This document shows, piece after piece, positions 40,264 to 63,487 of a stretch of DNA of 64,000 bases. The DNA lies in assembly GCA_902623685.1 (NCBI GenBank), contig CACNUQ010000005.1, forward strand, positions 44 through 64,043, written 5' to 3'. The notes under the pieces were generated by a model. The model did no database searches. It saw only the letters and a program-made list of their open reading frames with translations, and was not told where the DNA came from. The number at the start of each line of letters is the position of its first letter. Position 1 is the stretch's first letter. Source of the DNA: an uncultured SAR86 cluster bacterium. Lineage in GTDB: Bacteria; Pseudomonadota; Gammaproteobacteria; Magnimaribacterales; D2472. The translations under genes and the position numbers were made by a program.

Positions 40264-41748
40264 ATGAATATATTCTCAGAAGAAAAGATAAATAGTTTTG
40301 ATACCTTGCATTTAAATTCCAAAATTAATGTTCCATTAGTTGTTGACTTAGATGGAACGCTAGTCCTTACTGATACGCTTCATGAATTAGCAATTAAATT
40401 TTTAATAAAAAATCCATTTCTAAATCTGCCAATCATGATTGGTTGGTTATTTAAAGGAAAAGCACATTTTAAGCATAATATATCTCAGCAAATAGAAGTA
40501 AATGCTGCGTCACTGCCCTATAATACAACATTTTTAAAATGGGCAAATTCTCAAAGAGAGAATGGAAGAAAGATTGTATTATGCTCAGCGGCGAATGAAA
40601 GAATTGCCAAAAAAGTTGCTGAATATACTCAAATATTTGATGAGGTAATTTCAAGCACACAATCAGAAAATCTCTCAGGTAAAAATAAAGCATTAATCTT
40701 AGAAGAGAAATTTAGCGATACCGGTTATATATATGCCGGAAATTCATTTGATGATATTCCTGTATGGGATAAAGCCATTGAGACAATTATTGTAAATGCC
40801 TCAAATAAACTCGAGAAGATTGTGAAGAAAACATATGATCAGAATTTATTTTTTTCAACTAATGTAAAAAAAATATCTATTTGGCTAAAACCACTGAGGC
40901 TTCATCAATGGACAAAAAATTTATTAATATTTCTTCCATTGATTGCTGCCCACCAGCAATATAATTTTGAAAATATTTCACTCCTTTTAGCTTCATTTAT
41001 TTGCATCGGATTGTGCGCGTCTTCTACATACGTGTTCAATGACATAATAGATATAGATAGTGATCGATTGCATGCAAGGAAAAAAAATAGATCATTTGCC
41101 TCTGGTCAGATTCCCGTAAAGCTTTCCTTATTGATGATGCTACTAATGCCTCTCTCAATAATCTTCGCTTCAATGATCGGGGAAAACTTTATGATGATGA
41201 TATTGTTATATACTCTTCTAACTCTATCTTATTCACTTTTTTTAAAAATCTTTGCAATAATTGACTGTATCGTTTTAGCCGCTTTGTATACTATTAGAAT
41301 TATTGCTGGGGCTGTAGTAATTGATAATGTTCCTTCATTTTGGTTGATTGCTTTTTCAACTTTGTTTTTTTTCTCATTAGCTTTCCTTAAGAGATATTCA
41401 GAATTGTTAAGTGCTAGGGATTTAGGAGAAAACATTATTCATGGCAGAGGATATTTAAGTTCAGATTCTCCACTTATTTTATCGCTTGGGATTTCGTCAG
41501 CTCTTGGTTCAGTAATTGTGATGATGCTTTATCTGAATAGTCCAGAAATTTTGCAACTGTATAATTCTCCTCAAATAGTATGGTTTACTATTCCGATATT
41601 ACTTTTTTGGACTAGTTATATTTGGCTTCAAGCTAATAGAGGTAACATGCATGATGACCCAGTTATTTTTGCAATAAAAGATAGAGTGAGTATTTTATCT
41701 GCAATTTGCTTTTTTGTTTGCATTATTTTGGGCGCAAGAGGTTTTTAA
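40264..41748 (+). CDS. Fusion of an N-terminal HAD-type phosphatase with a C-terminal UbiA-family prenyl-phosphate phosphoribosyltransferase (Rv3806c-like)
   Basis: HAD motifs: VVDLDGTL (DxDGT), VLCSAAN, GKNK and GNSFDDIP. From about residue 205 there is a polytopic UbiA domain: LRLHQWTKNLLIFLPL, and the Asp-rich motif NDIIDIDSDRLHARKKNRSFASGQI. Confidence 0.7.
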   Translation: MNIFSEEKINSFDTLHLNSKINVPLVVDLDGTLVLTDTLHELAIKFLIKNPFLNLPIMIGWLFKGKAHFKHNISQQIEVNAASLPYNTTFLKWANSQRENGRKIVLCSAANERIAKKVAEYTQIFDEVISSTQSENLSGKNKALILEEKFSDTGYIYAGNSFDDIPVWDKAIETIIVNASNKLEKIVKKTYDQNLFFSTNVKKISIWLKPLRLHQWTKNLLIFLPLIAAHQQYNFENISLLLASFICIGLCASSTYVFNDIIDIDSDRLHARKKNRSFASGQIPVKLSLLMMLLMPLSIIFASMIGENFMMMILLYTLLTLSYSLFLKIFAIIDCIVLAALYTIRIIAGAVVIDNVPSFWLIAFSTLFFFSLAFLKRYSELLSARDLGENIIHGRGYLSSDSPLILSLGISSALGSVIVMMLYLNSPEILQLYNSPQIVWFTIPILLFWTSYIWLQANRGNMHDDPVIFAIKDRVSILSAICFFVCIILGARGF

Positions 41749-41753
41749 CAATT

Positions 41754-43058
41754 ATGCAGCTAAAAAAAAATTCCTGGGGAAATATATCCTCACCGAATCA
41801 TCAATTTAAAGATCTAGATTCTAAGGATGTCGCCCAGAATACTATTTCCAATCATTCAAATGGGATAGTTTATGGGATGGGTAGAAGCTATGGTGATGTA
41901 TGTCTTAATCAAGATGGACTTCTTTGGAAAAGTAAAAAACTAAATAGATTAATTTCTTTTGATGAAAAGTTAGGAATTTTAGAATGCGAATCTGGGATGA
42001 CTCTTAAATCAATTCAAGATTTAGTCATTCCTAAAGGATGGATGTTACCAGTCTCACCTGGAACCCAATTTGTGACTGTTGGAGGAGCTATTGCTAATGA
42101 TATTCATGGAAAAAATCATCATCAAGCTGGTACATTTGGAAATCACATTACTGAGATTTTACTTTTGAGATCTGATTCAGATCCAATTTTATGCGGTCCA
42201 AATAAAAATAAGAATTGGTTTAAGGCAACAATTGGAGGAATAGGATTAACTGGAATTATTTTCAGTTGCAAAATTCAACTAAAAAAAATTAATGGAAGCT
42301 GGCTGGAGGCTGAATCAATTCCTTTTCAGGGCTTAGATAAATTTTTTGAGCTTACAAAAGAATCAGATTCAGATTGGGAGTACACTGCGGCATGGATAGA
42401 TTGCCTTTATAAAAAAGAGATTAGGGGCATTTTTGAAAGAGGAAAACACGTAATAAAAGATAAAAAATTTAAAAACTTTCAAATTAGTTTTCCTTTTACT
42501 CCTCCATTTTCATTGGTTAATAAATTAACAATTTCAATTTTTAACCCGATTTATTTTTTTCTTAAATCTTTTTTTTCTGGCAAGCGAACTATTCATTATT
42601 CAAAGTTTCTTCATCCATTAGATAACATTCATAACTGGAATAGAATGTATGGAACCCGAGGATTTTATCAATTTCAATGTGTTATGCCTCACGAATCTAG
42701 CAAAGAAACCCTAAAAAAAATGTTAGATTTAATTACAGAATTGAAGATGGGATCTTTTTTGGCAGTTCTAAAAAGTTTTTCTAATTTTGAACCAGTTGGA
42801 TTATTAAGTTTTTCTGAGCCAGGGATTACATTTGCTATGGATTTTCCTAATAAAGGAAATAAAACCGAGTTGTTATTTCATGAATTAGAAAAAATAGTAA
42901 TCCAATCAGGTGGGAAGATATATTTGGCTAAAGATATGCTTATGAGCAAAGAAAGTTTTGAAGCCTCGTATAAATCATTAGATTCATTTGCAACTTTCAG
43001 AGATCCCAATATAAGCTCTCAAATGTCTAAAAGGTTGTTTGGAGATTCAATTGGATAA
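41754..43058 (+). CDS. FAD-dependent prenylphosphoryl-ribose 2'-oxidase (DprE1-like)
   Basis: Collinear with M. tuberculosis DprE1 as I recall it. GMGRSYGD vs [38 protein letters not shown] vs [66 protein letters not shown], and GGKIYLAKD. The ATG at 41754 is preferred over the TTG at 41706. Confidence 0.8.
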   Translation: [434 protein letters not shown]

Positions 43059-43800
43059 TAGAGAAACTAAAGTAATTTTGGGAGGGACTTCAACCATTGC
43101 CAAAAATGTAGCAAAAATATGGCTAAAACAGCGGCCCATAAAGATAATTTTAATCGGAAGAAATTCTCAAAAATTACAGGCTGTATTTTCAGAATTAAAT
43201 AATATAAATCCTTTATCAGAAATTAATTGTGCAGAATTGAAATTTGATGATATTGATGCAGGAAGAAAATTAATTCATGAAATTGTTAAGTCTAATAATG
43301 TTTCAAAAGTACTTATTGCATTCGGTACCTTACCAAATCAGTTAGAGTGCGAAGAAAATTCTATTCGTTTAAAAGACGCGTTATTTATTAATGGTGTTTT
43401 GCCAGTAATTTATGCTGATATATTTGCGTCAAAAATTAATTCTTCTTTACCCTCCACAATTGCCATTATAGGATCTGTTGCTGGGGACAGAGGCAGGAGA
43501 TCAAATTTTTTTTACGGATCAGCTAAAAGCATGATACATACATATGTAGAAGGCGCTAGGCACAAGTTTAAGGATTCTAATTTAAATTTGTGCATTATTA
43601 AGCCTGGGCCTACGCAAACTCCAATGACAGAATCATTAGGTTTAAGAATCAAGTTAGCAGATCCTAAAATAGTTTCTAGAGATATAGTTGATGGAATTGA
43701 AAAGAACAAATCTGAAATTTATACGCCTTCTAAATGGAAAATAATTATGTTTATTATAAAGAGCTTACCCGAATTTATTTTTCATAAACTTAATATTTAA
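43039..43800 (+). CDS. SDR-type prenylphospho-2'-keto-pentofuranose reductase (DprE2-like)
   Basis: ILGGTSTIA Rossmann motif, VLIAFG, GDRGRRSNFFYGSAK (Mtb DprE2: GERVRRANFVYGSTK), IIKPGPTQTPM, and a C-terminus ...FIFHKLNI (Mtb: ...SIFRKLPI). The start is uncertain: TTG at 43039 or 43051. Confidence 0.75.
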   Translation: MEIQLDNRETKVILGGTSTIAKNVAKIWLKQRPIKIILIGRNSQKLQAVFSELNNINPLSEINCAELKFDDIDAGRKLIHEIVKSNNVSKVLIAFGTLPNQLECEENSIRLKDALFINGVLPVIYADIFASKINSSLPSTIAIIGSVAGDRGRRSNFFYGSAKSMIHTYVEGARHKFKDSNLNLCIIKPGPTQTPMTESLGLRIKLADPKIVSRDIVDGIEKNKSEIYTPSKWKIIMFIIKSLPEFIFHKLNI

Positions 43801-46533: not shown

Positions 46534-48096
46534 ATGCAAGCAAACACTAAGAGACATCTTTTCAATAGTATAGGATTCATTTTAATGGTTTCTTTAATTG
46601 TTTTAAGGTATCCAAATTTTGTTTTCAAACCGAGATTTTGGGCTGAAGAAGCAGTATATTTTGAAATTTTTTATAGTCTTGATCATTGGTGGCAATCGTT
46701 TAATCTTTTAATTTATCCAGCATACTATCTTTTTTTAAGTAGGCTGGGTCCAAGCTTAGCCACAGTGTTTCCTATTGAATATGCTCCATTAGTTACTTCA
46801 TTTGTTGGATTGATTGTACTTTCCATTCCCTTGTTAATAATTTTTTATACCGACTCAATTTATTGGAGCACGATAAAAAGTAAGCTGTTAATTTCATCCC
46901 TTTATATTTTTTCATCCACAACTGGAGAGGTATGGATGACTAGTACAAATGTTGGTTTTATAGTGCCTGTTTTTATTTTTTTAATATTAATAGATGAAAA
47001 TTTAATCTCAAAAGCAAAGAGATTTTTTTATAATGCTCTTTTGTTTATTGGGGCTATCTCAAGTCCAATTGCTATGCTAATGGCACCATTTTTCTACATA
47101 AAATATTTTATATCCAGAGAAGTAACTAGTAGAAATTATTGCATAATTTTATTTTTTGCAGCCCTAATTCAAATGGCTCATTATCTAACTGCCAGTCACT
47201 TTGGTATGGTTGCAGAGGACAGATTAGATATTGGTTCATGGGATATTACGACTAGTCTTGGAAATCTTCTTGCTTACAATATTATTTTCCCCTTGTTTGG
47301 ATACTTTATTTCTTTACTTTTTAGAGAGTTCTTTGCTTTGTTTGCCATCGGATTAGATTTAGAGGGTGTTTTAGAATCCATAAATACATCATCGGCTTTA
47401 TCTCCAAATATTCTGTTTCTAATTGAATTTTTATCTAAGATAGCTTTTCCAGTCTTATGCATTTTACTTCTAACAGTAATTTATGTTGTGTTTTTGTTAA
47501 TGAGTAGAGCTACATTAAATAAAAAAATATTTGTAATAAGTTTATTTATTTATCTTAGTTTGGTTCTAAATGGCCTATCTCTCGGGGCACTTGGAGGATT
47601 TCGATATTCCTTAATTACAGCTTTTATTCTTCTATTTTATTTACATTCAATGCTTATAGATTATCCTGACAATAAAAATTACATAGCAAAGATTTTATTA
47701 TCATGCTCACTGATTGTAGGTGTTTTAGAGTATTATCCTAGATTACATAACTATGTTCCTGACACATTTGTTGCCGAAGAGATTCAATGGCCAAATTGGA
47801 ATGATGAGCTGAAAATTTGGCAAGAAAATAATACCTATCTTCCAAAGGTTTGGCCGTACATTAAAAATAAAGATTCAATTTATCCGGCAAGATTAAAAAA
47901 TGAGGCAAATATTTTTTGCATTGATTTAAATCATCCAAAAAATTGGGAAAGAATGGGCTTTAGATACTTTAGTTCTTCATTTAATGAAATGCTAAGTGTT
48001 GGAATATCCAATGACATCAACAAACAAATTGTGCATTACGATAATTGCAGGGGAAATATTATAATCAATGGAGAGCAAGAATCATTAAGGCAGTAA
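46534..48096 (+). CDS. Polytopic membrane protein, candidate GT-C-type lipid-sugar-dependent glycosyltransferase
   Basis: 520 aa with about 11-13 hydrophobic helices. There is an acidic motif (FWAEEAVYFE) right after TM1 and a roughly 110-aa hydrophilic C-terminal domain. I recognised no family. The call rests on topology and context next to GtrA and the DprE1/E2 homologues. Confidence 0.4.
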   Translation: MQANTKRHLFNSIGFILMVSLIVLRYPNFVFKPRFWAEEAVYFEIFYSLDHWWQSFNLLIYPAYYLFLSRLGPSLATVFPIEYAPLVTSFVGLIVLSIPLLIIFYTDSIYWSTIKSKLLISSLYIFSSTTGEVWMTSTNVGFIVPVFIFLILIDENLISKAKRFFYNALLFIGAISSPIAMLMAPFFYIKYFISREVTSRNYCIILFFAALIQMAHYLTASHFGMVAEDRLDIGSWDITTSLGNLLAYNIIFPLFGYFISLLFREFFALFAIGLDLEGVLESINTSSALSPNILFLIEFLSKIAFPVLCILLLTVIYVVFLLMSRATLNKKIFVISLFIYLSLVLNGLSLGALGGFRYSLITAFILLFYLHSMLIDYPDNKNYIAKILLSCSLIVGVLEYYPRLHNYVPDTFVAEEIQWPNWNDELKIWQENNTYLPKVWPYIKNKDSIYPARLKNEANIFCIDLNHPKNWERMGFRYFSSSFNEMLSVGISNDINKQIVHYDNCRGNIIINGEQESLRQ

Positions 48097-52482: not shown

Positions 52483-53691
52483 ATGTCAGACATTCAGCAG
52501 TTCAACCTAAATAAAATTTTTATAGCAATTCCATTAATTATAATTTTTTTTGCAAATATTTTTATCACTCAACTGAGAGGTTTATCTTTTATTGGCGAGA
52601 TTGCAATGATTGCAGGAGTTACTTCATTAATAGCTATCTTGATTGGTCACAGATCAGATATAGCAATTCTTTCAAATAGTGAAAATCGAGCTCTTCTAAA
52701 TCTTGCAGAAAGTATAAAAGGAATAGCTTTAATAATATTATTTTTAATCCCATTCTTATTTTTTTTATATTTTCTTGGAATAAAGATTGAGTACTTGCTT
52801 ATTGCAATTTTGTCTTGTGTTTTTGCTATAAATGATTCTGTCTCTTCTTTCTATATTAGAAATGGAAATTTTTATTTTTATTCTTTTTTTAAATCTATGC
52901 CTAGTTTAATTCTATTAATAAGTGCCTATTTCATAAATTCTCCCGAGATGTCATGGATTATAAGTTATCTCATTTCATTAATAATATTGTCTTTTCTAAC
53001 TTTTAATTTACTCAAAGATTCAAATTTAAAATTTAATTTTTTTTCTATTGCAAATTACTTAATAACAAAAATTGTTCCAACCATTACTGCTCTTATTTGT
53101 GCAACTGGAACAGTTTTTTGGCTTTTTATAATTACCTCAAAAACTGGTTCAGAGTCAGCAGGGATTTGGTCAAATGTATATAGAATTTTCTCTTTACCAT
53201 TAATTTTCTTAACTGCAACATACCTTCCCTTGGTACTTTTAAAATTAGGAGATTTAAAAAAAACTACAAAGAAAATAAATCACATGAATAAATTTTCAAT
53301 AATTTACATTTCACTAAGTTGCGCCATCGTATTTTTTGCTTTTATTGCTGGACCGGAAATTTTTATAAAATTTACTGGCAGTGATGTAAGGCTTTCAGTC
53401 TCATTATTAATAACAATGATAATGTTTGCTATATTTAAAAATTTTCTAGGTTATCACCAATCTTTTTTTCAAACTCTTCAGCTAGATTTTGTTTTGCTTA
53501 TAATCCTAATTCTTGAAATCATTGCTGCTGGAATAATTTATTTTTGGATTGAGGCAAATGAACTTCAAATTATCGTAAACTATATTTTTAGTATCACAGG
53601 AATTTGTGCATTCATTTTGTTAATTTTCTTGATAGGACTATCTGTAAAATATTACTTATTCAATCCCAACGATTCAATAGAATTAAAATGA
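52483..53691 (+). CDS. Polytopic membrane protein, probable Wzx-type oligosaccharide flippase
   Basis: 402 aa with about 12 hydrophobic helices in a glycan locus. There is no catalytic motif. The call rests on topology and context only. Confidence 0.45.
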   Translation: MSDIQQFNLNKIFIAIPLIIIFFANIFITQLRGLSFIGEIAMIAGVTSLIAILIGHRSDIAILSNSENRALLNLAESIKGIALIILFLIPFLFFLYFLGIKIEYLLIAILSCVFAINDSVSSFYIRNGNFYFYSFFKSMPSLILLISAYFINSPEMSWIISYLISLIILSFLTFNLLKDSNLKFNFFSIANYLITKIVPTITALICATGTVFWLFIITSKTGSESAGIWSNVYRIFSLPLIFLTATYLPLVLLKLGDLKKTTKKINHMNKFSIIYISLSCAIVFFAFIAGPEIFIKFTGSDVRLSVSLLITMIMFAIFKNFLGYHQSFFQTLQLDFVLLIILILEIIAAGIIYFWIEANELQIIVNYIFSITGICAFILLIFLIGLSVKYYLFNPNDSIELK

Positions 53692-53735: not shown

Positions 53736-54905
53736 ATGATAATTAGTCTAATAATTCCAGCCCTAGGAAATCCTTTATCTCTCAAGAAGGTTATTAATGC
53801 AATACAAAAGCAGACTCTTCAACCAAATGAAATTGTAATTGTAGATTCTTCTCCTAATGATGAAGTTGAAAACCTAAGCCTGTCCTTTCAAGCACAATTA
53901 CCAATTAAATATTTTAGAGTTAAAAGTCTTTATCCTGGGGAGGCAAGAAATTTTGGAATTTCAAAGTCTGTAGGCGACATTATTGCAACATTAGACTCGA
54001 AAACTATTCCTAGAGAGGACTGGTTGGAAGAAAGCATTGAGAAAATAAATTCTGATGAGTATGAAATTTCTTTTGGTTCAACTACTTATAAAGCAAATCT
54101 ACCATTTCAGAAAGTTCTTAGAGCATGCATTTATGGAAAAAAAACCGTGCAGACTCTTCCAGGATCAGTTTTTTCTAGAGATACATTTTATAGAGTCGGT
54201 ACGTTTGCTGAGGGTACAAGAAGTGGAGAAGATTTAGAATGGAGAAATCGAGCAAAGAAAAAAGACATATCGATCTATACCCATCAAAAAGCCAAGTTGA
54301 TTTATACTGAAATTTCTAAGAACATCTTTCAAGAAATTAAAAGAGCCTTTATATATCAACTTCACGGAGCAAAACTGGATGTTCAGTTAAGAACTAGATT
54401 AGTGATATTTGGAATCGGAGTTCTAATGATAACTTTGCTAATTCCTCAATGGAATAATCTTGTTGGTTGGGAGTCGAGTAGATTTTATATTGCTAACATT
54501 ACAAAGAGTTATTTTTATTTTCTGAGCATCTTCACAATAATTTCTTTAGCAATTTTTCATAAATTTAATAAAGTTGCAAGAAATATATGGTTTAAATTTC
54601 TTTTTCTTTCAATATTTATTTTATCTTCTTTTTTTGTTTTTCAATGGAATGCTGCAATGGCTAATTGGGTTGAAGAATCTGTATATTATATTCCTCACAT
54701 TACAAAGATCTATTTGAGCCTCCTTTTTCTATCAGGAATTTTTTTTAGAGGTTTATACATACCAATATCTAGGGGTATTGCATTAAATTATATTTTTCCA
54801 ATCCGCTGGGTAGTAGTTGGATTGGTTGGAACAATCATTGATTTAGCAAAGTTTCCTGGTTATTTTATTGGTGCAATTTTTGGTTTAGCAAGATTGGCAA
54901 AATAG
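53736..54905 (+). CDS. Glycosyltransferase family 2 with a C-terminal multi-helix membrane domain
   Basis: LIIPALGNP...IVIVDSSPND (GT2 N-terminal pattern), DSKTIP, and GEDLEW. About five hydrophobic helices follow residue 215. Confidence 0.75.
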   Translation: MIISLIIPALGNPLSLKKVINAIQKQTLQPNEIVIVDSSPNDEVENLSLSFQAQLPIKYFRVKSLYPGEARNFGISKSVGDIIATLDSKTIPREDWLEESIEKINSDEYEISFGSTTYKANLPFQKVLRACIYGKKTVQTLPGSVFSRDTFYRVGTFAEGTRSGEDLEWRNRAKKKDISIYTHQKAKLIYTEISKNIFQEIKRAFIYQLHGAKLDVQLRTRLVIFGIGVLMITLLIPQWNNLVGWESSRFYIANITKSYFYFLSIFTIISLAIFHKFNKVARNIWFKFLFLSIFILSSFFVFQWNAAMANWVEESVYYIPHITKIYLSLLFLSGIFFRGLYIPISRGIALNYIFPIRWVVVGLVGTIIDLAKFPGYFIGAIFGLARLAK

Positions 54906-54913
54906 ATATATTA

Positions 54914-55807
54914 ATGAAAAAAAGATTATTTTTATTTTACTCATTCATCATTTTAATGCCTTTTTTATTGGGGATTTTATTAGAGTATAAAAGGCCAATT
55001 ATTTATCAAAATTTTTTAGACATCATCAAGAAGAACATTAGATCATTTGAAATCAGAAATAATTATCCAAAAAATCTTTGCAACATCTCTTCCCTGTCAA
55101 CATTACCTTATGAGAGTAATTTAATAATTGGTCACTTGTATGGACATCCATCAGTTTCTGAAGAAAATCCTCTAGGAAAAATTAAAGATTTCATCTCTGA
55201 AAATAGAGAAAACTTAAAATCTGTAATTTTTACCGGAGATATCTTTAAAAATCCATCATATAAGAAATGGCTGGAATTAAAATCATTTCTAAACAAATTA
55301 GACATAAATTTTTATATAGCACCTGGCAATCATGATGTTGGAATTGAAAACGGTGCTGCCAGAGACTTATTCAAGTTAGTTTTTGATTTTAGATATCCTC
55401 AAGTAGTTAAATTTGAAAATGAAATTTTTATTTTTGAGGACACTACAATTAATAAATGGAACTTCAATGAAGAAACTCTTCAATTAATTGAAGAAAATTC
55501 ATCAGAAGAAATCTCTTTATATGTTTTTACTCACAATATAATTTTTGATGAGCTTTCAACATTTGCTAACTCTAGAGTAGGTAAACCTAAAAAATTATTA
55601 AAAGCACAATATTTATATAGCAAGATTCAAAATAAGTATAAGAGTGTCTCAATCATAAGTGGTGACACTGGTGCCTTTGATTTTATGCCATCAATGGCTT
55701 GTTATAGATTAAATAATCTTTTTGCTATTGCAAATGGTTTTGGAAATAGGGTGGAAAATGAAGTTTTAGTAATAAAAGATAATCAAATATTTAGTTATGT
55801 TCTGTAA
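54914..55807 (+). CDS. Calcineurin-like metallophosphoesterase with an N-terminal membrane anchor
   Basis: Motifs IIGHLYGH, FTGDIF, APGNHD and VFTHN, plus an N-terminal hydrophobic helix. Confidence 0.65.
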   Translation: MKKRLFLFYSFIILMPFLLGILLEYKRPIIYQNFLDIIKKNIRSFEIRNNYPKNLCNISSLSTLPYESNLIIGHLYGHPSVSEENPLGKIKDFISENRENLKSVIFTGDIFKNPSYKKWLELKSFLNKLDINFYIAPGNHDVGIENGAARDLFKLVFDFRYPQVVKFENEIFIFEDTTINKWNFNEETLQLIEENSSEEISLYVFTHNIIFDELSTFANSRVGKPKKLLKAQYLYSKIQNKYKSVSIISGDTGAFDFMPSMACYRLNNLFAIANGFGNRVENEVLVIKDNQIFSYVL

Positions 55808-55812
55808 TAATT

Positions 55813-56412
55813 TTATATTGATAAGTTTAGTAACTTGATGGCATTACAATACTTAGAAAATCGTCTTCTTTTTGAAGGGATAATATCAAGCAGATAATCT
55901 AAAGCTGTTTCTTTGGGAGCTTTAATTTCAATGACAGCATCTGTTTCACAAAAAGAATTACTGTTGCTAGCCAAATCAATATATTTTATTTGAGTATCAC
56001 AAGTAATTCTTACTTGTTTAAAAGTAAAATACTCTCTGTTATATGTTACTGAAACTTTTTTTTGAAGCTGCCCATAAAAATTATCAAAGTAGCCTATATT
56101 TGATATATATCTTTCTTCGCTATTAGATAATCTTGTTGTTTTTTTATATCTACCTTCTGCAGAAGAAATTTTTACCTCTAAAGAATATTCACTCAATTTT
56201 GAAAGTGGGTAATGACGTATTCTAATTTTTTTCCTGGGAAGAAGTCCCTCTTCAGAGTCTCTAAAAAGATTAAAATCAGCTGAATCATAATAGTCTGAAC
56301 TAATAATTCTTTTTGGATAAAGCATTTTTAAACCATCTTTTTCAAGATTAGAAATAAAATTTATTGCATCATTTAATGTCATGGGAATTTTTTCTTCTAT
56401 TCTGTAACTCAT
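55813..56412 (-). CDS. VTC / triphosphate-tunnel (TTM) domain protein, polyphosphate-polymerase-like
   Basis: 199 aa. N-terminal YRIEEKIP (ExExK-like tunnel motif), RIRHYP, LEVK and IEIK repeated basic/acidic beta-strand pattern typical of bacterial VTC-domain proteins. ATGA overlap with the upstream gene. Confidence 0.55.
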   Translation of the reverse strand: MSYRIEEKIPMTLNDAINFISNLEKDGLKMLYPKRIISSDYYDSADFNLFRDSEEGLLPRKKIRIRHYPLSKLSEYSLEVKISSAEGRYKKTTRLSNSEERYISNIGYFDNFYGQLQKKVSVTYNREYFTFKQVRITCDTQIKYIDLASNSNSFCETDAVIEIKAPKETALDYLLDIIPSKRRRFSKYCNAIKLLNLSI

Positions 56413-58694
56413 AATATTTCCAATATAGAGTTTTTATCAAAATAAAGTTGATTGATACAATTCAAGCTAGATATCTTTAAAATTGCTCCAAAAAATTCTT
56501 GTTTTTTTTGAAATGCTTCCGCGCATTTTTGAGAATCTTCTGCATTTAGAGAATCAATATATGTTTTTGAAGAATCTTTGGAAGAAATTCCTACATTTGA
56601 ATTAATTATCTCTATTAAAGAAGCATTGAATGTAGATTGCTCTCCAACAGACACTCCTTTATCACCGCAATTTTTAAAAATTGCACTTTCAATTTTATAA
56701 ATGCCTTTACTAAAATCAGAACAGTCATTTTTAGCATTAAAGACAGATAGCTTTGTTATTTCAATATTTGAAAAGTCCACATCTAGGCCATCTGCACTTG
56801 CATTGAGGATTTCTAAATTATTAATAATTCCATCACTGCCCACAATATTTATTACATCCTCACAAATTGAAAATTGTCCATTTGCCTTTATCTTTGTTGC
56901 TTTAAAACGTGCATTATAAAAAGTGAGACAACCAGTTACCCCAAATGAATTCATTCTACTACCGATATTATTCTTTTCTGCATTCACTAGATTTGATTCA
57001 AGGATAATGCTTGTATTTTCTAAATTGCTTTCTCTAATTATTATCCAGTCATTTATGTTATTTAAATTTATATAAAGCTCGCCTTTTTCTTCACTAAAAA
57101 AGGCACCTGCAGTAGCAGTCATCTCAATATTAATTAAGCCATCAAGAAATGATTTTGAAATAATAGGATCTCTGGTAATTTTTGGCGGCTCAATGAAGAG
57201 TGGGCTGTCATAATCAATATTTAAAAATTTTTTTCTTTCTAATAATTTTCCAACCATAGAAAAATCCAAGAGCTGTTCGTCACAACCTTTATTGTCTATT
57301 CTACATATTGAAGCAAGTAGCTTTTTTTCATCATGATTCATATGTCCATTTTGTACTTTTACAATATATGAATTAGGAATTGAAGATCTGACATTATTTT
57401 GAAAATTTTCTAAAGGAGATATTTTTTCAAATGAATCTAGTTTGTCGTTTTCAAGATTTAGAAGAAACTTTTTATGCATTTCATGTAGTCTTATAATCTT
57501 TTCAATTGTTTTTTCAAGAATTATTTCGGACTCCTTTAGGGTAAGTTTAAAATTATTACCTTCAGTAGATTTTGTTAGTTTTTTTGGTGTAATGAGTCTG
57601 ATTTGTTCCAATAATTCGGAAAAGTGCCTACTTTCTAAATATGGATAGAAGTGAAAAGATGGAATATACCTCAACCATTGAGTATTTATATCTCTAGGAT
57701 TGCCATCAAAATATATTGGCTCTACTCCATTTTCTAAAGCATTAAAATAGAATTTTCTATTGTGTGGTCGAAGAGCATGAAAACTGTTTGTTGAAAAGAG
57801 CAAAATCTCATATGCAGCCCACTTATCAATAAATTTTTTATTGTCTAATGAAAGAATTTTCCAATCTAATACATAATTATCTTCAAAATCCCTGCCATAC
57901 TTCATGTATGCTTCCTGAAGAATGGAGAATGAATCAAGTGCCATTACTGAGGTAGCATCGTTACTGGATGCCCAATTATCATTTGTGATTTTTGCTAGAG
58001 AAATATTCTCTAGATCAAGATGGGATGTATCAGAAGTTTGAATTCTATAATTATTGAATAAAAATCTTTCATCTCCTTCAAATAAAGGGCCTTCTCTTCT
58101 ATTCATACTTTCAAGAAGTTCTTTTGCAGTTTTTTCTTGAAATAGCATTTGGGAATCTACGCCATTAATTATTACATTTACTAGAGAGGTTCTAGGAGAT
58201 AAGAAGTCTAAAAGCCTCAACATTGATGTAAGAATGATTTCATTTTCATAACGTCTAGTCGCAGGAAGTAGTAATTTAAATTTTATGATGTTGGCTATTG
58301 ATCCATTTAGCAAAGAAACATCAACGCTTTGATTTAGTAGTCCACCTTCCTCAAAATTTATATGATCTTTCCAATCTCCATGCAGTCTGATTTTTGCATC
58401 ATGAATACATTTGCCAAAATCATAGTTTACTGAAACTGTTCCTAAGAACCGTTTTTTGTATTCTGAGGTAATAGATGAATTTCTTGATATGAACGCCTCT
58501 AATGTATTTGTTGTCCACTTTCTATAGTTATTTATATTAATCTCTATTGAATTTATGCTGTCAAGAGAACTTAATTCATCTAAATATTTGCCAGTACTAA
58601 AATCACAATTTCCTAGGTTATTTGCGTTTATATTGAATGCAAAAAGCAATAGGAGGTAAAAAAAAGTATTTTTTAAATTAAAAGTTAATGGCAT
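56409..58694 (-). CDS. Secreted CotH-like (atypical kinase fold) protein with a C-terminal parallel beta-helix-like repeat region
   Basis: Signal peptide (FFYLLLLFAFNINA). The CotH-like order of elements is IRLHGDWKDH, KFKLLLP...ENEIILTSMLRLLDFLSPRTSLVNVIINGVDSQMLFQEK, then HNRKFYFN...PIYFDGN. The C-terminal 200 aa has repeated short N/D/G-rich strands (NASADGLDVDFSN, NAKNDCSDFSKG, NCGDKGVSVGE, NSNVGISSKD). Confidence 0.5.
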   Translation of the reverse strand: MPLTFNLKNTFFYLLLLFAFNINANNLGNCDFSTGKYLDELSSLDSINSIEININNYRKWTTNTLEAFISRNSSITSEYKKRFLGTVSVNYDFGKCIHDAKIRLHGDWKDHINFEEGGLLNQSVDVSLLNGSIANIIKFKLLLPATRRYENEIILTSMLRLLDFLSPRTSLVNVIINGVDSQMLFQEKTAKELLESMNRREGPLFEGDERFLFNNYRIQTSDTSHLDLENISLAKITNDNWASSNDATSVMALDSFSILQEAYMKYGRDFEDNYVLDWKILSLDNKKFIDKWAAYEILLFSTNSFHALRPHNRKFYFNALENGVEPIYFDGNPRDINTQWLRYIPSFHFYPYLESRHFSELLEQIRLITPKKLTKSTEGNNFKLTLKESEIILEKTIEKIIRLHEMHKKFLLNLENDKLDSFEKISPLENFQNNVRSSIPNSYIVKVQNGHMNHDEKKLLASICRIDNKGCDEQLLDFSMVGKLLERKKFLNIDYDSPLFIEPPKITRDPIISKSFLDGLINIEMTATAGAFFSEEKGELYINLNNINDWIIIRESNLENTSIILESNLVNAEKNNIGSRMNSFGVTGCLTFYNARFKATKIKANGQFSICEDVINIVGSDGIINNLEILNASADGLDVDFSNIEITKLSVFNAKNDCSDFSKGIYKIESAIFKNCGDKGVSVGEQSTFNASLIEIINSNVGISSKDSSKTYIDSLNAEDSQKCAEAFQKKQEFFGAILKISSLNCINQLYFDKNSILEIL

Positions 58695-58701
58695 GGAACC
58701 A

Positions 58702-59340
58702 TTATCCTGCTGAGAATTTAATGTCTATTATTTCGGGATTCTCTTGATAATGTTTTGAAATTTGCTTGAGATTAGATGATTGATTTGATGAGAGTCTATA
58801 AACATATCCATTTGAATCTTTTCCAAAAGAGATCAGCATATCACTATTGAAAAGATCATCATTTTTAGTTTTAGAAGTAATTTCCAATATATTTGAGGAG
58901 TTTCCCTCTGAAAATGAAGTTTCAAAAAGTTTTTTATTAAAAGAGGTGCCTAAAATAATATTTGCGAAATAAGCAGTTATTATCAAAATATTACTAGTCA
59001 TCCCTAGAATTATCAGCCATCTGATGTCAGCAGCGGCACATATACCTAATGACAACATTAAAAAAAATATTACTAACTCAAATGATGATCTAACAGGGTT
59101 TCTAAATCTAACAATTGATAAAGCCCCGATCATTCCAAGAGATAGAGCAATATTTCCAGAAATAACACTTGTAATAGCGAAGGTAATTATCGGCAGCAAC
59201 ACCAGAGTCATAGTGCCAGAAAATGTTTTTATCCAGTTTTGATGATGAATTCCTACAGACGCCCTAGTTAAAAGAGCAAAAAATATTAAAACTACTATGG
59301 CTTCGATTTTATCTTGATTAAGAAGAATATAGTCGATCAT
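58702..59340 (-). CDS. DUF4956-like membrane protein
   Basis: 212 aa with four hydrophobic helices containing GALSIVRFRNPVRSSFELVIFF, then a soluble tail. This matches my memory of DUF4956, which is usually found next to VTC and CotH genes. Confidence 0.5.
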   Translation of the reverse strand: MIDYILLNQDKIEAIVVLIFFALLTRASVGIHHQNWIKTFSGTMTLVLLPIITFAITSVISGNIALSLGMIGALSIVRFRNPVRSSFELVIFFLMLSLGICAAADIRWLIILGMTSNILIITAYFANIILGTSFNKKLFETSFSEGNSSNILEITSKTKNDDLFNSDMLISFGKDSNGYVYRLSSNQSSNLKQISKHYQENPEIIDIKFSAG

Positions 59341-59410
59341 CTGAGAAGCAAAAAAACTTTATCGTTAATTTTTAATCTTTAATTTATAATTACAGGAATT
59401 ATATATAACT

Positions 59411-60064
59411 ATGAATGTAACTCAAGCAGTCAACCAGCGGAGCTCCATTAGGGCATTCCTTGATAAGCCTGTATCAAACGCTTTAATTAAACAGTTGCTT
59501 ATTAAAGCATCAAGAAGTCCGTCTGGAGGTAATTTACAGCCATGGAAAATATATGTAATTAATGATCTATCAATGAAAAATTTTCTTGAGTTTCAAAAGA
59601 ATTGGAATAAACCTGAAACTCCTCCATATGAAATATATCCACCAAAATTAAAGGAACCATACAGAACATCGCGTTATGAGTTAGGCGAACAGATGTATGA
59701 TTTATTGGGTATTCCAAGAGAGGACAAGGATGCAAGAATAGCGCAAGTTCTTAAAAATTATGAATTTTTTGGTGCTCCATGTGCCTTTTTTTGTTTTGTT
59801 GATCCTCAAATGGGATCTCCACAGTGGTCAGATTTAGGAATGTTTCTTCAAACATTTATGCTTTTAGCTAAGGAGGCTGGATTAGATACCTGTGCTCAAG
59901 AGGCATGGTCACTTAAAAATGATAGTGTTTCTGAATTTGTAAATTCTGACGCAGGAGACATACTATTTTGTGGAATGTCTATTGGATTTAAGGATGAGAG
60001 TGAGCCAATTAATTCTCTAAGATCAGAAAGACGACCATTAGAGGAATGGGCTAAATTTTTATAG
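59411..60064 (+). CDS. Nitroreductase-family flavoprotein
   Basis: RSSIRAFLDKPV, ASRSPSGGNLQPW and a C-terminal GMSIGF pattern. 217 aa. Confidence 0.8.
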   Translation: MNVTQAVNQRSSIRAFLDKPVSNALIKQLLIKASRSPSGGNLQPWKIYVINDLSMKNFLEFQKNWNKPETPPYEIYPPKLKEPYRTSRYELGEQMYDLLGIPREDKDARIAQVLKNYEFFGAPCAFFCFVDPQMGSPQWSDLGMFLQTFMLLAKEAGLDTCAQEAWSLKNDSVSEFVNSDAGDILFCGMSIGFKDESEPINSLRSERRPLEEWAKFL

Positions 60065-60086
60065 TTCTTATTTGTATATAATTAAT

Positions 60087-60548
60087 ATGACTATAGAACA
60101 TTTTATGTCTCAAGCAATGATTCTTGCAAAAAGGGCATTTGCAAATAACGAAGTCCCAGTTGGAGCCATAATTGTTAAGGATAATAAAATTATTGGCAGT
60201 GGCTTTAATCAAGTCATCAAAAAAAATTCAGTGTCTGCTCATGCCGAAATCATTGCCATCAATAATGCTAGTAAATTTTTAAATAATTATCGATTAAATA
60301 ATTGTGATATGTATGTAACCTTAGAACCATGTCACATGTGTTCAAAAGCCATCGTCGATGCAAGAATTAATTGTTTGTACTTCGGCGCTACTGAGCCAAA
60401 AACTGGAGCTATTGAATCCATAGATAAATTCCTAGCTAGAGAGGATTTAAACCATAGAGTCGATTTTAGTGGCGGTCATTTAGCAGATGATTCTTCTCTT
60501 TTGCTGAAAAATTTCTTTCAATCCAAAAGATTGAAAGTTAACTATTAA
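60087..60548 (+). CDS. tadA: tRNA adenosine(34) deaminase
   Basis: CDA fold zinc motifs HAEIIAI and LEPCHMCSKA, and EVPVGAIIV. The ATG at 60087 is preferred over the TTG at 60072. Confidence 0.9.
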   Translation: MTIEHFMSQAMILAKRAFANNEVPVGAIIVKDNKIIGSGFNQVIKKNSVSAHAEIIAINNASKFLNNYRLNNCDMYVTLEPCHMCSKAIVDARINCLYFGATEPKTGAIESIDKFLAREDLNHRVDFSGGHLADDSSLLLKNFFQSKRLKVNY

Positions 60549-60562
60549 AAATCTTTTAAATT

Positions 60563-61372
60563 CTACTTTAACTCAATCCAAATTGGACAATGATCTGAAG
60601 GCTTTTCCATTGATCTTGCCTCATAATCAATACCTGTTTTAGTCATTGAAGCTTTTAGATTTTCTGAAATGAGAATGTGATCAATTCTCAAGCCTCTTTT
60701 TGGATTATCATCAAACATTCTTGATCTGTAATCAAACCATGAATAAATTGATCCTTCATTAGGATTCTGATTTCTCCAAGAGTCAATAAAGCCTAGATTT
60801 TTAATCTGATTCCACATTTCAATTTCTTCTGGAAGGAATGCTGTTTTTCCATCTCTGAGCCATCTTTTGGCATTAACTTCACCGATCCCAATATCTAATT
60901 CAGTTGGGGCAACATTAAAATCACCCATTACTATGATATTTTCTTCTGTTTTCTGAATTTTTTTAATATGCTTCTTTAGATCATTATAGAATTTTATTTT
61001 TTTTGGAAATTTTGTTTCATGAGATCTATTCTCACCTTGGGGAAAATACCCATTTAAGATAACAATTTTTTGTTTTTTCCATTTAAAAGTGGCTTGAATA
61101 AAACGCTTTTGATCATCAATTTTATCATTTGAAAACCCCTTAACTATCTCATATGGCTTTTCTTTGCTTAATATTGCTACTCCATAGTGACCTTTTTGTC
61201 CCCAAAATTCAGGATGGTATCCAATCTCTTTTATTTCATCTATTGGAAACTCAGGATCATTTACTTTTGTTTCTTGAATTCCAATAACATCTGGATTGAG
61301 AGTATCTCTAATATGAATTAACTGGTGGGGGCGTGCTCTAATACTATTAATATTGAATGATACAATTTTCAT
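60563..61372 (-). CDS. xthA: Exodeoxyribonuclease III
   Basis: MKIVSFNINSIRAR, IGIQETK, GDFNVAP, LRIDHILIS and SDHCPIW motifs of the ExoIII/AP endonuclease family. Confidence 0.93.
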   Translation of the reverse strand: MKIVSFNINSIRARPHQLIHIRDTLNPDVIGIQETKVNDPEFPIDEIKEIGYHPEFWGQKGHYGVAILSKEKPYEIVKGFSNDKIDDQKRFIQATFKWKKQKIVILNGYFPQGENRSHETKFPKKIKFYNDLKKHIKKIQKTEENIIVMGDFNVAPTELDIGIGEVNAKRWLRDGKTAFLPEEIEMWNQIKNLGFIDSWRNQNPNEGSIYSWFDYRSRMFDDNPKRGLRIDHILISENLKASMTKTGIDYEARSMEKPSDHCPIWIELK

Positions 61373-61375
61373 ATT

Positions 61376-63487
61376 TCAAGAAGCCTTTGTTAGATAAATA
61401 CTCTGATTGAATATTGTGAAGTCAGTAAGAATTTGAGTGCCTTCATTTAAAATATAATCATCATCAAGATTAATTTTAATTATTTCATCTTCCTCTTTTT
61501 TTAGCTCATTGTAATCTTCCATAGCCTGAAAAGAAGTAAAAATTTCTAAATCAAGAGAGGAACGTCTTTTATTTTCTATATCCAATGCCCATATTTGCCT
61601 TTCTTCTTTTTCAAGCTTTCTATTTTCTATATTCAAAGAAACTACATCTTTATTTTTTTGCTCTTCATATCTTTTTCTGATGCTAAGGATATATTGTAAA
61701 TTTGGATTTTTTTTGACTCTTAAAAGATGCTCATCTCTTAAGGTTGAAATTAATGAGGGATCCATAGAAAATTTTCGATAACGAATTGGTTTGATCTCAT
61801 CCCATGGAAGGGCGCTTTCGTATGAACTTTCACCCACTTCTTCAATATCCCAAGTGCTTGGTAAAACTATATCTGGATGAATTCCTTTATTTTGCATTCC
61901 TGAGCCTGTAATTCGATAGAACTTTGACTCGGTGATTTTAATTTGTCCCGAGCTTAAATCATCTAATTTTTGAACTGTTCCTTTTCCAAATGTTTGTTGA
62001 CCGATTATTATTCCTCTCTGATAATCCTGAATTGCTCCTGCAAATATTTCTGATGCAGATGCAGAATATCTATCAACCATGACTGCTAAAGGTTTTTTCC
62101 AAAGATGCCTAGCTCTAGCATCGCCCATTGATCTAATGCTGCCATCACTTTCTTTTACTTGTAATGTTGCGCCTGGAGAAATAAATAGTCCAACTAATTT
62201 ATTTGCTTCGTAAAGTGATCCGCCAGAATTACCTCTTAAATCAATTAAAACCGCATCAACTTTTTGTTGATTGAATGTATTAAGTATTCTTTCTACGTCT
62301 CCTGAACTACTTCTAAAATTAGGATCTCTATTTCGCCATGCATTGAAGTCAATGTAGAATGCAGGTAAATCAATTATCCCGATCTTAATTGTTTGCAAAT
62401 TTCTTTGAACCTCAATAATTCTAGACTGCGCTGCTTGCTCTTCTAACTTCACTTCTTCTCGGGTAATTGTTACAAATTTTCTTTCGCTAAAATCTTCTGT
62501 TTTTGCTGGTATAAGTTCTAACTTAACTCTTGTGCCTGCTTTTCCTCTGATTAATTGAACCACTTCATCAATTCTCCATCCCACAACATCAACAGGAACT
62601 TTATCTAATTTATCAATTTGAGATATTTTGACTATTTTGTCATCGGGATGAATATTTTTAGTTTTCTCAGCAGGACCACCAGGCACAACACTCACTATGG
62701 TTGGATAGTCATCCTCCGTAGTTAATAAAGCTCCTATTCCCTCAAGCTTTAAGCTCATATTCATTTCAAAATCCTCAGCTGATTTTGGTGAGAAGTATGA
62801 AGAATGAGGATCAAAAAAAGATGTTAAATTATTCATCGAAATTGAAAAAATATCTTCTTCGTTTCTTTGTGAAATTCGTCTAAGTCTATTTTTATATCTT
62901 TTTTCTACGGTTTCAGTTGCCTCATCAAGGTTTTCATCTGCAAGGATAGAAGTTAGTACATCATTTTTAGAAAGTTTCCTCCATGATTTTTTTAATTCAT
63001 ATTTATTTTTTTTCCATTGTTTCTTCTTGTCATCAATTACAATTTTTTCATCACTGGTAAAATCAAAATTCTTTTTGGTGACCTCTTTCAGTTGATAATT
63101 CGTTGCTTCTATAAGTCTATTAAAATAAAGATTAATAAACTTAAAACTCGATTCTAAATTTATTGAGCACAATGGCGATTTTGTATATTTTTTCTCATAA
63201 TTTAAAGGATCATCAAATTTAGAAAATTTTCTTCTAAATGAATCGATTTCATGCTTAGTAAAATATATTTTTTCAGCATCGAGTTGCTCTATTAATGAAT
63301 CAAATACTTCAGAATTAATTGCACTTAAATCTTTATCATTAAAAAAGTGCTCTTGAGTCATCTTTAAAAAAATTTCCTGACAGAGTCTTTGCTTTTCAAC
63401 TGACGTAGGTATATTTATTTTTGCCTCAGAATTAATGCTCAGCAAAACTATCGCAAGCAAGCTCAGGGCTTTTTTCTGTTTATACAA
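61376..63487 (-). CDS. prc: Carboxy-terminal processing (tail-specific) protease
   Basis: Signal peptide, PDZ region (GIGALLT...VSVVPGGPAEK) and S41 catalytic region (IDLRGNSGGSL, SASASEIFAGAIQDY, GQQTFGKGTVQ). 703 aa. Confidence 0.9.
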   Translation of the reverse strand: MYKQKKALSLLAIVLLSINSEAKINIPTSVEKQRLCQEIFLKMTQEHFFNDKDLSAINSEVFDSLIEQLDAEKIYFTKHEIDSFRRKFSKFDDPLNYEKKYTKSPLCSINLESSFKFINLYFNRLIEATNYQLKEVTKKNFDFTSDEKIVIDDKKKQWKKNKYELKKSWRKLSKNDVLTSILADENLDEATETVEKRYKNRLRRISQRNEEDIFSISMNNLTSFFDPHSSYFSPKSAEDFEMNMSLKLEGIGALLTTEDDYPTIVSVVPGGPAEKTKNIHPDDKIVKISQIDKLDKVPVDVVGWRIDEVVQLIRGKAGTRVKLELIPAKTEDFSERKFVTITREEVKLEEQAAQSRIIEVQRNLQTIKIGIIDLPAFYIDFNAWRNRDPNFRSSSGDVERILNTFNQQKVDAVLIDLRGNSGGSLYEANKLVGLFISPGATLQVKESDGSIRSMGDARARHLWKKPLAVMVDRYSASASEIFAGAIQDYQRGIIIGQQTFGKGTVQKLDDLSSGQIKITESKFYRITGSGMQNKGIHPDIVLPSTWDIEEVGESSYESALPWDEIKPIRYRKFSMDPSLISTLRDEHLLRVKKNPNLQYILSIRKRYEEQKNKDVVSLNIENRKLEKEERQIWALDIENKRRSSLDLEIFTSFQAMEDYNELKKEEDEIIKINLDDDYILNEGTQILTDFTIFNQSIYLTKAS

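Follow-up and report, generated by a model that had tools for sequence, protein, structure and literature searches.

Introduction

The closest described relatives of the gene trio studied here belong to Gram-positive exopolysaccharide loci. The pel operons of Gram-positive bacteria carry an accessory set made up of cotH, a polyphosphate polymerase gene, and genes for DUF4956 and DUF4832 proteins (Whitfield et al. 2020, PMC7112168). In S. intermedius, Pel levels and aggregation both fall when either SIR_1592 (the DUF4956 gene) or SIR_1594 (the gene for the secreted CotH) is deleted; the authors of that work described SIR_1592 as an MgtC-type transmembrane domain joined to an ACT domain, discussed a regulatory role for it, suggested a link to phosphate metabolism, and did not find the synteny of the triad outside the Pel locus (PMC12345266). 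NELoc-2 of C. perfringens also has VTC and CotH genes. Here, we analyze a related triad from an uncultured SAR86 cluster bacterium (assembly GCA_902623685.1), which lies on the minus strand of a 64,000-nucleotide stretch of contig CACNUQ010000005.1. This whole stretch is called the window, and all coordinates are positions within it. In their order along the minus strand, gene 1 encodes a DUF4956 membrane protein, gene 2 a CotH-like/beta-helix protein with a predicted signal peptide, and gene 3 a VTC-domain protein.

In bacteria, polyphosphate synthesis is credited to PPK1 and PPK2 and not to VTC-type enzymes, and kinases that depend on polyphosphate are established (PPK2, polyphosphate glucokinase and NAD kinase). 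The Bacillus CotH spore-coat protein kinase works in the cytoplasm of the mother cell, where ATP is present. A precedent for polyphosphate synthesis coupled to translocation across the vacuolar membrane is provided by the eukaryotic VTC complex; the triphosphate and Mn ligands of its Vtc4 subunit are K200, R264, R266, K281, Y359, R361, E426, S457 and K458, and Vtc2 and Vtc3, which are inactive, have I or L at the position of K458 (bioRxiv 10.1101/2023.01.27.525886). Our literature search found no functional study of any bacterial VTC-domain protein.

How does the SAR86 locus compare with the Gram-positive Pel triad (SIR_1592–1594)? Both consist of the same adjacent trio near exopolysaccharide genes: a secreted CotH-type protein, a standalone VTC protein, and a DUF4956 protein with a C-terminal ACT-like domain. 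They differ in that the SAR86 genes are ordered DUF4956, CotH-like, VTC, and in that the host is a Gram-negative marine bacterium without a pel locus. Indeed, no Pel family was found among the Pfam matches of the window genes between 40 and 64 kb, nor in the other triad contexts that we examined. The remaining difference resides in the secreted component, which in SAR86 matches no Pfam CotH model, shows His where the catalytic Asp would be, and bears a beta-helix rather than the FN3 domain or membrane anchor of other versions.

The triad itself is already known from genome annotation and the two Pel papers; thus, it is not categorically new. An initial annotation of this DNA, made from the sequence by itself, had called the triad widely annotated but functionally undescribed, and this was essentially right, the literature describing the triad only as an accessory set of Gram-positive Pel loci with a first deletion phenotype in S. 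intermedius. What is new is the third component, a divergent and large family outside all Pfam models that combines an Asp-to-His change with a beta-helix; the wide spread of the triad in Gram-negative marine bacterioplankton outside Pel loci; and evidence at the level of aligned residues suggesting that bacterial VTC proteins resemble active Vtc4.

A conserved three-gene module

Our main finding, which is well supported, is that these genes constitute a conserved, co-inherited envelope module composed of a cytoplasmic Vtc4-type enzyme, a dedicated inner-membrane protein, and an exported CotH-fold/beta-helix protein. The three open reading frames (ORFs; 212, 761 and 199 amino acids; coordinates in Table 1) are tightly packed. 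The TAA of gene 1 and the ATG of gene 2 are separated by a 7-nucleotide gap (TGGTTCC), and genes 2 and 3 meet in an ATGA stop/start overlap (TTATGAGT). The description of the triad as one minus-strand unit with exactly these junctions is thus borne out by the ORF listing and the junction sequences.

The module was then assessed across genomes. We searched species-representative genomes with a VTC profile alone and afterwards sought the other triad members by local hidden Markov model searches. The 35 loci obtained derive from SAR86, Pelagibacteraceae, Prochlorococcus, roseobacters, Marinomonas, Kangiella, Pseudothioglobus, Flavobacteriales and Comamonas. Contig ends truncate six of them, which are not evaluable, although in four of these six the CotH-like gene lies directly upstream. 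The full triad is present in 26 of the 29 evaluable loci, mostly in the same gene order; two of the 26 have the order DUF4956, VTC, CotH-like. Three loci have adequate flanks and no CotH-like gene. Five more contexts, found by way of the gene 2 protein, all contain a DUF4956 gene, a CotH-like gene and a VTC gene. Co-occurrence of the triad, which the initial annotation had named as a check on its proposal, is therefore far beyond chance among loci found by VTC similarity alone.

One of the three loci lacking a CotH-like gene is informative. In this Comamonas locus, a canonical Pfam CotH (117 bits) with its catalytic Asp retained lies between a marine-type VTC gene and a DUF4956 gene. Likewise, the Pseudobutyrivibrio plasmid pNP95 carries an annotated triad of canonical CotH (141 bits), VTC and DUF4956 genes within a glycan cluster. 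The presence of canonical CotH at the triad position in both cases argues that it and the CotH-like/beta-helix protein fill the same slot.

Some individual copies merit separate description. The Comamonas hybrid (L017, 6001–8683; metagenome-assembled genome (MAG) JAHAYB010000319.1; CotH ORF of 460 amino acids) links the canonical and the divergent versions of the module. On plasmid p1 of Streptomyces sp. BHT-5-2 (L044, 6123–9832), a canonical DUF4956 gene (190 bits) overlaps a VTC gene; we rejected this locus as a full triad, for it comprises only the DUF4956–VTC pair and has no recognizable CotH. A 677-amino-acid ORF downstream of that pair has no Pfam match and is unlike the CotH-like family; either another kind of third partner or an artifact of ORF calling in high-GC DNA may account for it. 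Other copies are apparently decaying: a Rhodospirillaceae MAG (L042, 3772–5846) has its CotH-like gene broken into two ORFs, and only truncated VTC genes, with or without a DUF4956 fragment, are left in a Pelagibacteraceae (L029, 5664–6516) and a Prochlorococcus (L037, 4705–5232) single-cell genome.

The VTC-domain protein

Gene 3 had been taken for a small, soluble VTC/triphosphate-tunnel protein with an ExExK-like N-terminus, and its sequence agrees with this assignment. The protein scores 77.1 bits against Pfam VTC (PF09359), well above the gathering threshold of 23 bits, and its N-terminus reads R4-x-E6-x-K8. Neither a transmembrane segment nor a signal peptide was detected in the sequence, and the protein is therefore considered cytoplasmic. 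A profile built from 22 sequences (gene 3 and its relatives) matches the solved tunnel domains of Vtc3, Vtc2 and Vtc4 with expect values (E) of 2e-4 to 1e-3. A Pfam search of all three triad proteins yielded no match to the SPX regulatory domain.

Would such a protein be expected to retain the active site of Vtc4? In alignments to 3G3Q and 3G3O, all nine of the Vtc4 ligands listed above map onto gene 3, in the same order, as K8, R64, R66, K81, Y124, R126, E162, S186 and K187; the counterpart of the discriminating K458 is K187. All nine positions are invariant or at least 90% conserved in the 22 gene 3-type sequences. The stretch containing S457 and K458, taken alone, has a low alignment score; nevertheless, its FSK[YF] motif is an exact match. 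Because the ligand set is complete and conserved, gene 3 looks like an active Vtc4-type enzyme stripped of its SPX and transmembrane domains.

The likeness to the eukaryotic complex (Vtc4/Vtc3 or Vtc2/Vtc1) thus encompasses the same Pfam catalytic tunnel domain with its nine ligands, K458 included, and the constant pairing of that domain with a multi-pass membrane protein bearing conserved arginines. In contrast to the eukaryotic arrangement, the SAR86 catalytic domain is a separate protein of 199 amino acids with neither an SPX domain nor a fused transmembrane domain, its membrane partner is unrelated to the Vtc1-type transmembrane domain and has an ACT/RAM domain, and a third, exported enzyme has been added.

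The secreted CotH-like/beta-helix protein

As had been predicted in the initial annotation, the N-terminal segment of gene 2 is signal-peptide-like. A short hydrophobic N-terminus and an AxA-type site just ahead of a conserved Cys occur in all of the unfused relatives that were aligned (36/36); in gene 2 itself, this cleavage site precedes the conserved Cys30 by a few residues, and the model is folded from about residue 28 onward. Eight cysteines are conserved in the family, six of them in the beta-helix part. The signal peptide and these cysteines fit an exported, disulfide-bonded, extracytoplasmic protein. Lipoprotein status was considered and rejected, as N, D or E mostly precedes the conserved Cys and the AxA site lies upstream. 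We also set aside P0113, a 946-amino-acid protein from a 3-kb metagenome contig, as a candidate DUF4956–CotH-like fusion: its junction (...NKEKICT-MLRLCICLI...) looks like a read-through of adjacent genes, and it was not used for topology. In this apparent read-through of the short intergenic gap, the signal peptide is kept as an internal hydrophobic segment.

Sequence searches with gene 2 against Pfam (E ≤ 10), NCBIfam and the PDB (phmmer), and with a 37-sequence profile against the PDB, returned nothing meaningful and no Pfam CotH match; none of the 37 relatives reaches Pfam CotH (PF08757), even at E ≤ 1. Gene 2 is not a member of Pfam CotH. The link to CotH came from a fold search only. The AlphaFold model of gene 2 is confident, with a predicted local distance difference test score (pLDDT) of 90.5 and a predicted template modelling score of 0.89. 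In Foldseek, its top match in the PDB is the CotH kinase of B. cereus (5JDA/5JD9; E = 1.7e-8, probability 1.0, target TM-score 0.52), more than five orders of magnitude ahead of the next kinase folds (HipA, HipT and CtkA, E ~7e-3). The family is large: there are 8122 representatives (clustered at 50% identity) at E ≤ 1e-3 and 2678 at E ≤ 1e-30.

For residue-level comparison, an alignment to CotH was built from the 5JD9 sequence, which had been retrieved by a PDB search using B. subtilis CotH as the query. When the gene 2 profile was compared with a CotH profile in hhalign, they aligned over 209 columns with E = 3e-4 and a probability of 39%; adding the divergent Pseudobutyrivibrio CotH to the CotH profile did not improve the score and left the register unchanged. 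Single sequences fared worse against the gene 2 family, with probabilities of 5% for one CotH and 0.5% for the Comamonas CotH. In B. subtilis CotH, the mutations D228Q and D251A inactivate the enzyme (PMC7821199). The catalytic D228 aligns to H306 of gene 2, which is His in 252 of 253 family members (the conservation set; median identity 34%), and the metal-binding D251 aligns to D330, which is Asp in 252 of 253. A CotH Asn aligns to N312, invariant in the set; K191, E192, H111 and D110 are further invariant polar residues of the kinase-like domain.

Bacillus CotH (5JD9/5JDA) is thus the best structural match for gene 2 and shares with it the motifs ING...E, HN..Y.N and FE.I..D, and D251 is retained as D330. 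The two are nonetheless far apart: structural identity is 14%, no Pfam match links them, D228 is replaced by His, and gene 2 has an additional beta-helix, is secreted, and is rich in conserved cysteines. The domain is thus a CotH-fold relative that keeps the metal-binding residues and has a near-invariant His at the position of the catalytic base. The divergent CotH-like core that had been proposed for gene 2 therefore stands as a fold, given the confident model and its best match to 5JDA/5JD9, but not as a Pfam CotH domain. The catalytic residues, whose absence was to have counted against the proposal, gave a mixed answer, with the catalytic Asp gone and the metal-binding Asp kept.

The beta-helix-like C-terminus suggested for gene 2 was also recovered. 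This part of the model is all-beta at a pLDDT of 94–98 and matches the PL3 pectate lyases of C. bescii (target TM-score ~0.55, probability 0.99–1.0, E ~0.02) as well as other polysaccharide-active beta-helices. At the sequence level, Pfam Pectate_lyase is touched by one of the 37 relatives, weakly (E = 0.027). Thirteen charged or polar residues of the beta-helix are identical in 253/253 sequences: E612, D613, D635, D638, D640, N656, D657, D660, D678, K679, E685, K706 and D707.

The DUF4956 membrane protein

Gene 1 passes the Pfam DUF4956 model (PF16316) marginally, at 33.1 bits against a cutoff of 30.6, and it carries the IVRFRNP motif noted in the initial annotation. A precomputed PF16316 match exists for 119 of 120 gene 1 relatives among the matches listed. 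The multi-pass membrane region, the ACT-like domain and the adjacent VTC gene also agree with the DUF4956 assignment. The motif G..G.LSI[VI]R.R stays unchanged even in Pseudobutyrivibrio and Streptomyces proteins of 16–23% identity, the 190-bit Streptomyces member among them, and it contains an invariant arginine pair (within RFR in gene 1).

In the gene 1 model (pLDDT 81.5), the membrane region is built of five helices (residues 9–30, 40–57, 62–79, 86–104 and 106–134), rather than the four transmembrane helices originally proposed; the third, SGNIALSLGMIGALSIVRF, is modeled at lower confidence. After the membrane region comes a C-terminal domain (residues ~150–210) of beta-alpha-beta-beta-alpha-beta topology, which in a fold search matches standalone ACT/RAM ligand-binding domains with TM-scores of 0.5–0.58. 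The charges of the protein follow the positive-inside rule for an N-terminus-out, C-terminus-in topology. From this distribution and the five-helix model, we infer that the arginine pair probably sits at the cytoplasmic end of helix 3 and that the ACT/RAM-like domain is cytoplasmic.

The membrane part of gene 1 has no fold match in the PDB, VTC channel subunits included. Likewise, comparison of the DUF4956 profile and the model with VTC chains gave no match, and no three-helix transmembrane channel of the Vtc1 type was recognized in the membrane region. In its architecture, a hydrophobic N-terminal domain followed by a C-terminal ACT-like domain, the protein is similar to the MgtC family; this likeness is one of architecture only, as our comparisons produced no match in sequence or structure.

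Proposed function and alternatives

What might such a module do? In the scheme that we favor, the VTC protein would use ATP on the cytoplasmic side of the membrane to make polyphosphate or to transfer phosphoryl units. A DUF4956 oligomer would then pass this product into the periplasm or present it there, perhaps under the control of a ligand bound to the ACT-like domain. There, the secreted CotH-like enzyme would use it to phosphorylate or decorate a cell-surface polymer bound by the beta-helix, most likely a polysaccharide; the enzyme would rely on the VTC product because the extracytoplasmic space lacks ATP. With His at the position of the catalytic Asp, the marine variant may carry out phosphotransfer by a changed chemistry, using for instance another base or a phospho-His step. 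The scheme is attractive because it explains why a kinase-fold enzyme cut off from ATP is always encoded with a polyphosphate-polymerase homolog and a membrane protein, because polyphosphate-dependent kinases are known elsewhere, and because the eukaryotic VTC complex couples synthesis with translocation. Support also comes from the lowered Pel levels and aggregation in the S. intermedius DUF4956 and CotH deletions and from the predominance of glycan genes among the neighbors of the triad. Polyphosphate synthesis, conduction by DUF4956, and use of the donor on a surface polymer are nevertheless conjectural steps, and we consider the scheme as a whole plausible, with a probability of roughly 0.35.

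Several observations weigh against it. The gene 2 family lacks the catalytic Asp of CotH, so that its domain may have no kinase function, and sequence comparison ties it to CotH only weakly (hhalign probability 17–39%, no Pfam match). Canonical partner CotH proteins do keep the Asp, so that the His is not required for the module as such. The DUF4956 membrane region resembles neither the VTC channel nor any solved channel, and ACT/RAM domains are usually regulatory. Triphosphate-tunnel enzymes include many with activities other than polymerization (PMC4641920). The glycan context is not universal, the Marinomonas triad lying between guaA and sfsA with no glycan genes adjoining. Finally, bacterial proteins of the VTC-domain, DUF4956 and secreted CotH types have no demonstrated activity in the literature. 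The initial annotation had read the triad as a split analog of the VTC complex. Of that reading, the three family or fold assignments, the conserved module and the complete Vtc4 site hold up; the CotH-like domain lacks the catalytic Asp, and the metallophosphoesterase partner and the DUF4956 conduit are weakened or unsupported, the last being conjecture to which neither structure nor sequence lends any VTC-channel likeness and with an ACT/RAM-like domain that fits a sensor or regulator equally well.

An alternative, in our judgment unlikely, is that nothing is exported: the VTC protein, acting as a hydrolase or cyclase, would make or destroy a small phosphorylated signal, and DUF4956, with its MgtC-like architecture, would sense a ligand through its ACT/RAM domain and signal across the membrane. 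The target of this transmembrane signal, with the same low likelihood, would be a periplasmic enzyme or an exopolysaccharide synthase. The ACT/RAM matches of the C-terminal domain, a membrane part resembling no channel, the diversity of tunnel-enzyme activities, and the MgtC-type and ACT description with its discussion of regulation by the S. intermedius authors (PMC12345266) all speak for such a role. However, the K458-equivalent lysine and all of the other polymerase ligands are kept; the invariant arginine pair would suit an anion path; and the phosphoryl donor of the secreted kinase-fold enzyme would be left unexplained. It is rather less likely that gene 2 is primarily a glycan-active enzyme, whose beta-helix would act on an acidic polysaccharide of the cell surface as a lyase, hydrolase or epimerase, with the CotH-like domain as a binding pseudokinase and the VTC–DUF4956 pair in some other supporting role. 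The beta-helix is indeed the most conserved part of the protein, with 13 charged or polar residues invariant; its fold resembles PL3 lyases and other polysaccharide-active proteins; the CotH Asp is lost; and glycan genes are frequent beside the triad. Yet the kinase-like domain keeps its invariant polar residues (H306, N312, D330, K191, E192, H111 and D110), which would be unusual for a dead scaffold, the likeness to PL3 is weak in both the fold and the Pfam searches, and canonical CotH without a beta-helix occupies the same slot elsewhere.

We find it improbable, more so than either of these, that the module builds a periplasmic phosphorus store, that is, a polyphosphate reserve, in marine bacteria that live with little phosphate, that the secreted protein would bind, anchor or trim through metal-bridged acidic rungs of the beta-helix, no third molecule being phosphorylated. 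Occurrence in SAR11, Prochlorococcus, SAR86 and roseobacters, the complete VTC active site, and a membrane-anchored metallophosphoesterase near the triad in three lineages would accord with storage. On the other hand, the module is patchy and sits on variable islands, some copies are decaying (L029, L037 and L042), in Gram-positives of the rumen, gut and mouth canonical versions lie within exopolysaccharide clusters, and the metallophosphoesterase rarely adjoins. Chance adjacency of three genes, or a gene 2 ORF that is not a real gene, has no observation in its favor and is already refuted by the co-occurrence in several lineages, the 8122 family representatives, and the pLDDT of 90.5. As for the favored scheme, its boldest form would make the module an independently assembled bacterial equivalent of VTC, in which a Vtc4-like polymerase on a DUF4956 oligomer threads polyphosphate outward and the His-type CotH-fold family uses the polymer on the cell surface, independently of ATP, in SAR11, Prochlorococcus and SAR86; we doubt this form, ranking it with the signaling alternative.

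The module bears on the question of how kinase-fold enzymes could act outside the bacterial cytoplasm, where ATP is lacking. Since it joins a Vtc4-like protein whose site is complete to a membrane protein of its own and an exported enzyme of the kinase fold, the idea that exported polyphosphate is an extracellular phosphoryl donor becomes directly testable with three small genes. Were it true, ATP-independent surface modification would occur in some of the ocean's most abundant bacteria (SAR11, Prochlorococcus and SAR86). The module is widespread in marine bacterioplankton, which live with little phosphorus and whose cell-surface islands influence how they interact with phages and grazers, and the analysis defines a large protein family covered by no Pfam model. 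Should the function prove to be regulatory or glycan-degrading, the module would still mark an uncharacterized surface-polymer step that is linked to Pel-dependent aggregation in a pathogen.

Features and neighboring genes

Features of the triad and its immediate surroundings are collected in Table 1. Promoter-like sites are not enriched over shuffled sequences in this AT-rich DNA (30% GC), which makes the scan behind the candidate promoter weak evidence; the same scan found no terminator-like site between the triad genes, a result of little weight at this GC content.

Table 1. Positions of the triad genes, their parts and adjacent features in the window
Feature	Position	Strand	Basis
Candidate operon promoter, TTGAGT-16-TATAAT	59398–59425	–	Best promoter-like site; within the 70 nt that separate the DUF4956 gene from its divergent upstream neighbor; 10/12 matches
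Gene 1, DUF4956 membrane protein, 212 aa	58702–59340	–	Pfam PF16316, 33.1 bits; model pLDDT 81.5
Gene 2, CotH-like/beta-helix protein, 761 aa	56409–58694	–	ORF listing
Gene 2, predicted signal peptide, residues 1 to ~25	58620–58694	–	N-termini of 37 family members; low model confidence at residues 1–26
Gene 2, N-terminal part, residues ~28–440, CotH-like atypical kinase fold	57375–58613	–	Foldseek; hhalign; conservation in 253 sequences
Gene 2, C-terminal part, residues ~499–761, right-handed parallel beta-helix, PL3 pectate-lyase-like	56412–57200	–	Model and fold search
Gene 3, standalone cytoplasmic VTC/triphosphate-tunnel domain protein, 199 aa	55813–56412	–	Pfam PF09359, 77.1 bits; no transmembrane segment or signal peptide
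Metallophosphoesterase with one N-terminal transmembrane helix; convergent neighbor, probably outside the core module	54914–55807	+	Pfam Metallophos, 26.9 bits; transmembrane residues 5–23

The triad borders a surface-glycan island in the window that comprises glycosyltransferases, a deacetylase, methyltransferases and a DprE-like set. Across 22 triad loci, the commonest neighbors are sugar-nucleotide and glycan genes, sulfotransferases included, and guaA and IMPDH flank the triad in several. The glycan-island setting emphasized in the initial annotation is therefore frequent but not obligatory, as the Marinomonas locus illustrates. Sulfotransferases recur in the flanks of loci L009–L033 (Sulfotransfer_1 in three ORFs, Sulfotransfer_3 in two), a hint of anionic surface glycans.

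The convergent metallophosphoesterase had been proposed as a partner of the triad. It recurs beside the triad in just 3 of ~40 loci, and we rejected it as a module member on this ground; it may be an occasional accessory gene. The homologs in question are found in three unrelated lineages, namely in a SAR86-like MAG (L001, 10872–11768), in Amylibacter (L015, 6941–7492) and in Prochlorococcus (L033, 2170–3003). PADLOC defense-system models gave no match for this protein or for the three triad proteins. A paper on the zetaproteobacterial Sfz6 CotH was judged unrelated to the triad.

Within the island, a UbiA-family prenyltransferase–HAD fusion (494 amino acids), a FAD_binding_4 oxidase (450 amino acids) and a short-chain dehydrogenase (253 amino acids) follow one another at 40264–43800 on the plus strand. 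This set resembles the mycobacterial DprE1/DprE2-type genes for decaprenyl-phospho-sugar epimerization, here in a gammaproteobacterial glycan island. Two further plus-strand genes (46534–48096, 520 amino acids; 52483–53691, 402 amino acids and very hydrophobic) have no Pfam match and may encode membrane proteins of the polymerase or flippase type. The gene at 53736–54905 (plus strand, 389 amino acids) combines a GT2 domain with a long hydrophobic C-terminal region, a synthase-like architecture.

On the other side of the triad, a housekeeping block at 59411–63487 (nitroreductase, tadA-like deaminase, exonuclease III family protein and tail-specific protease) is syntenic with MAG GCA_028097555.1 (L001). 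The same nitroreductase and tadA pair is found in L005/L006 beyond a small glycan cassette. Given this shared synteny, the region may be a recurrent site of insertion for the triad and the glycan genes.

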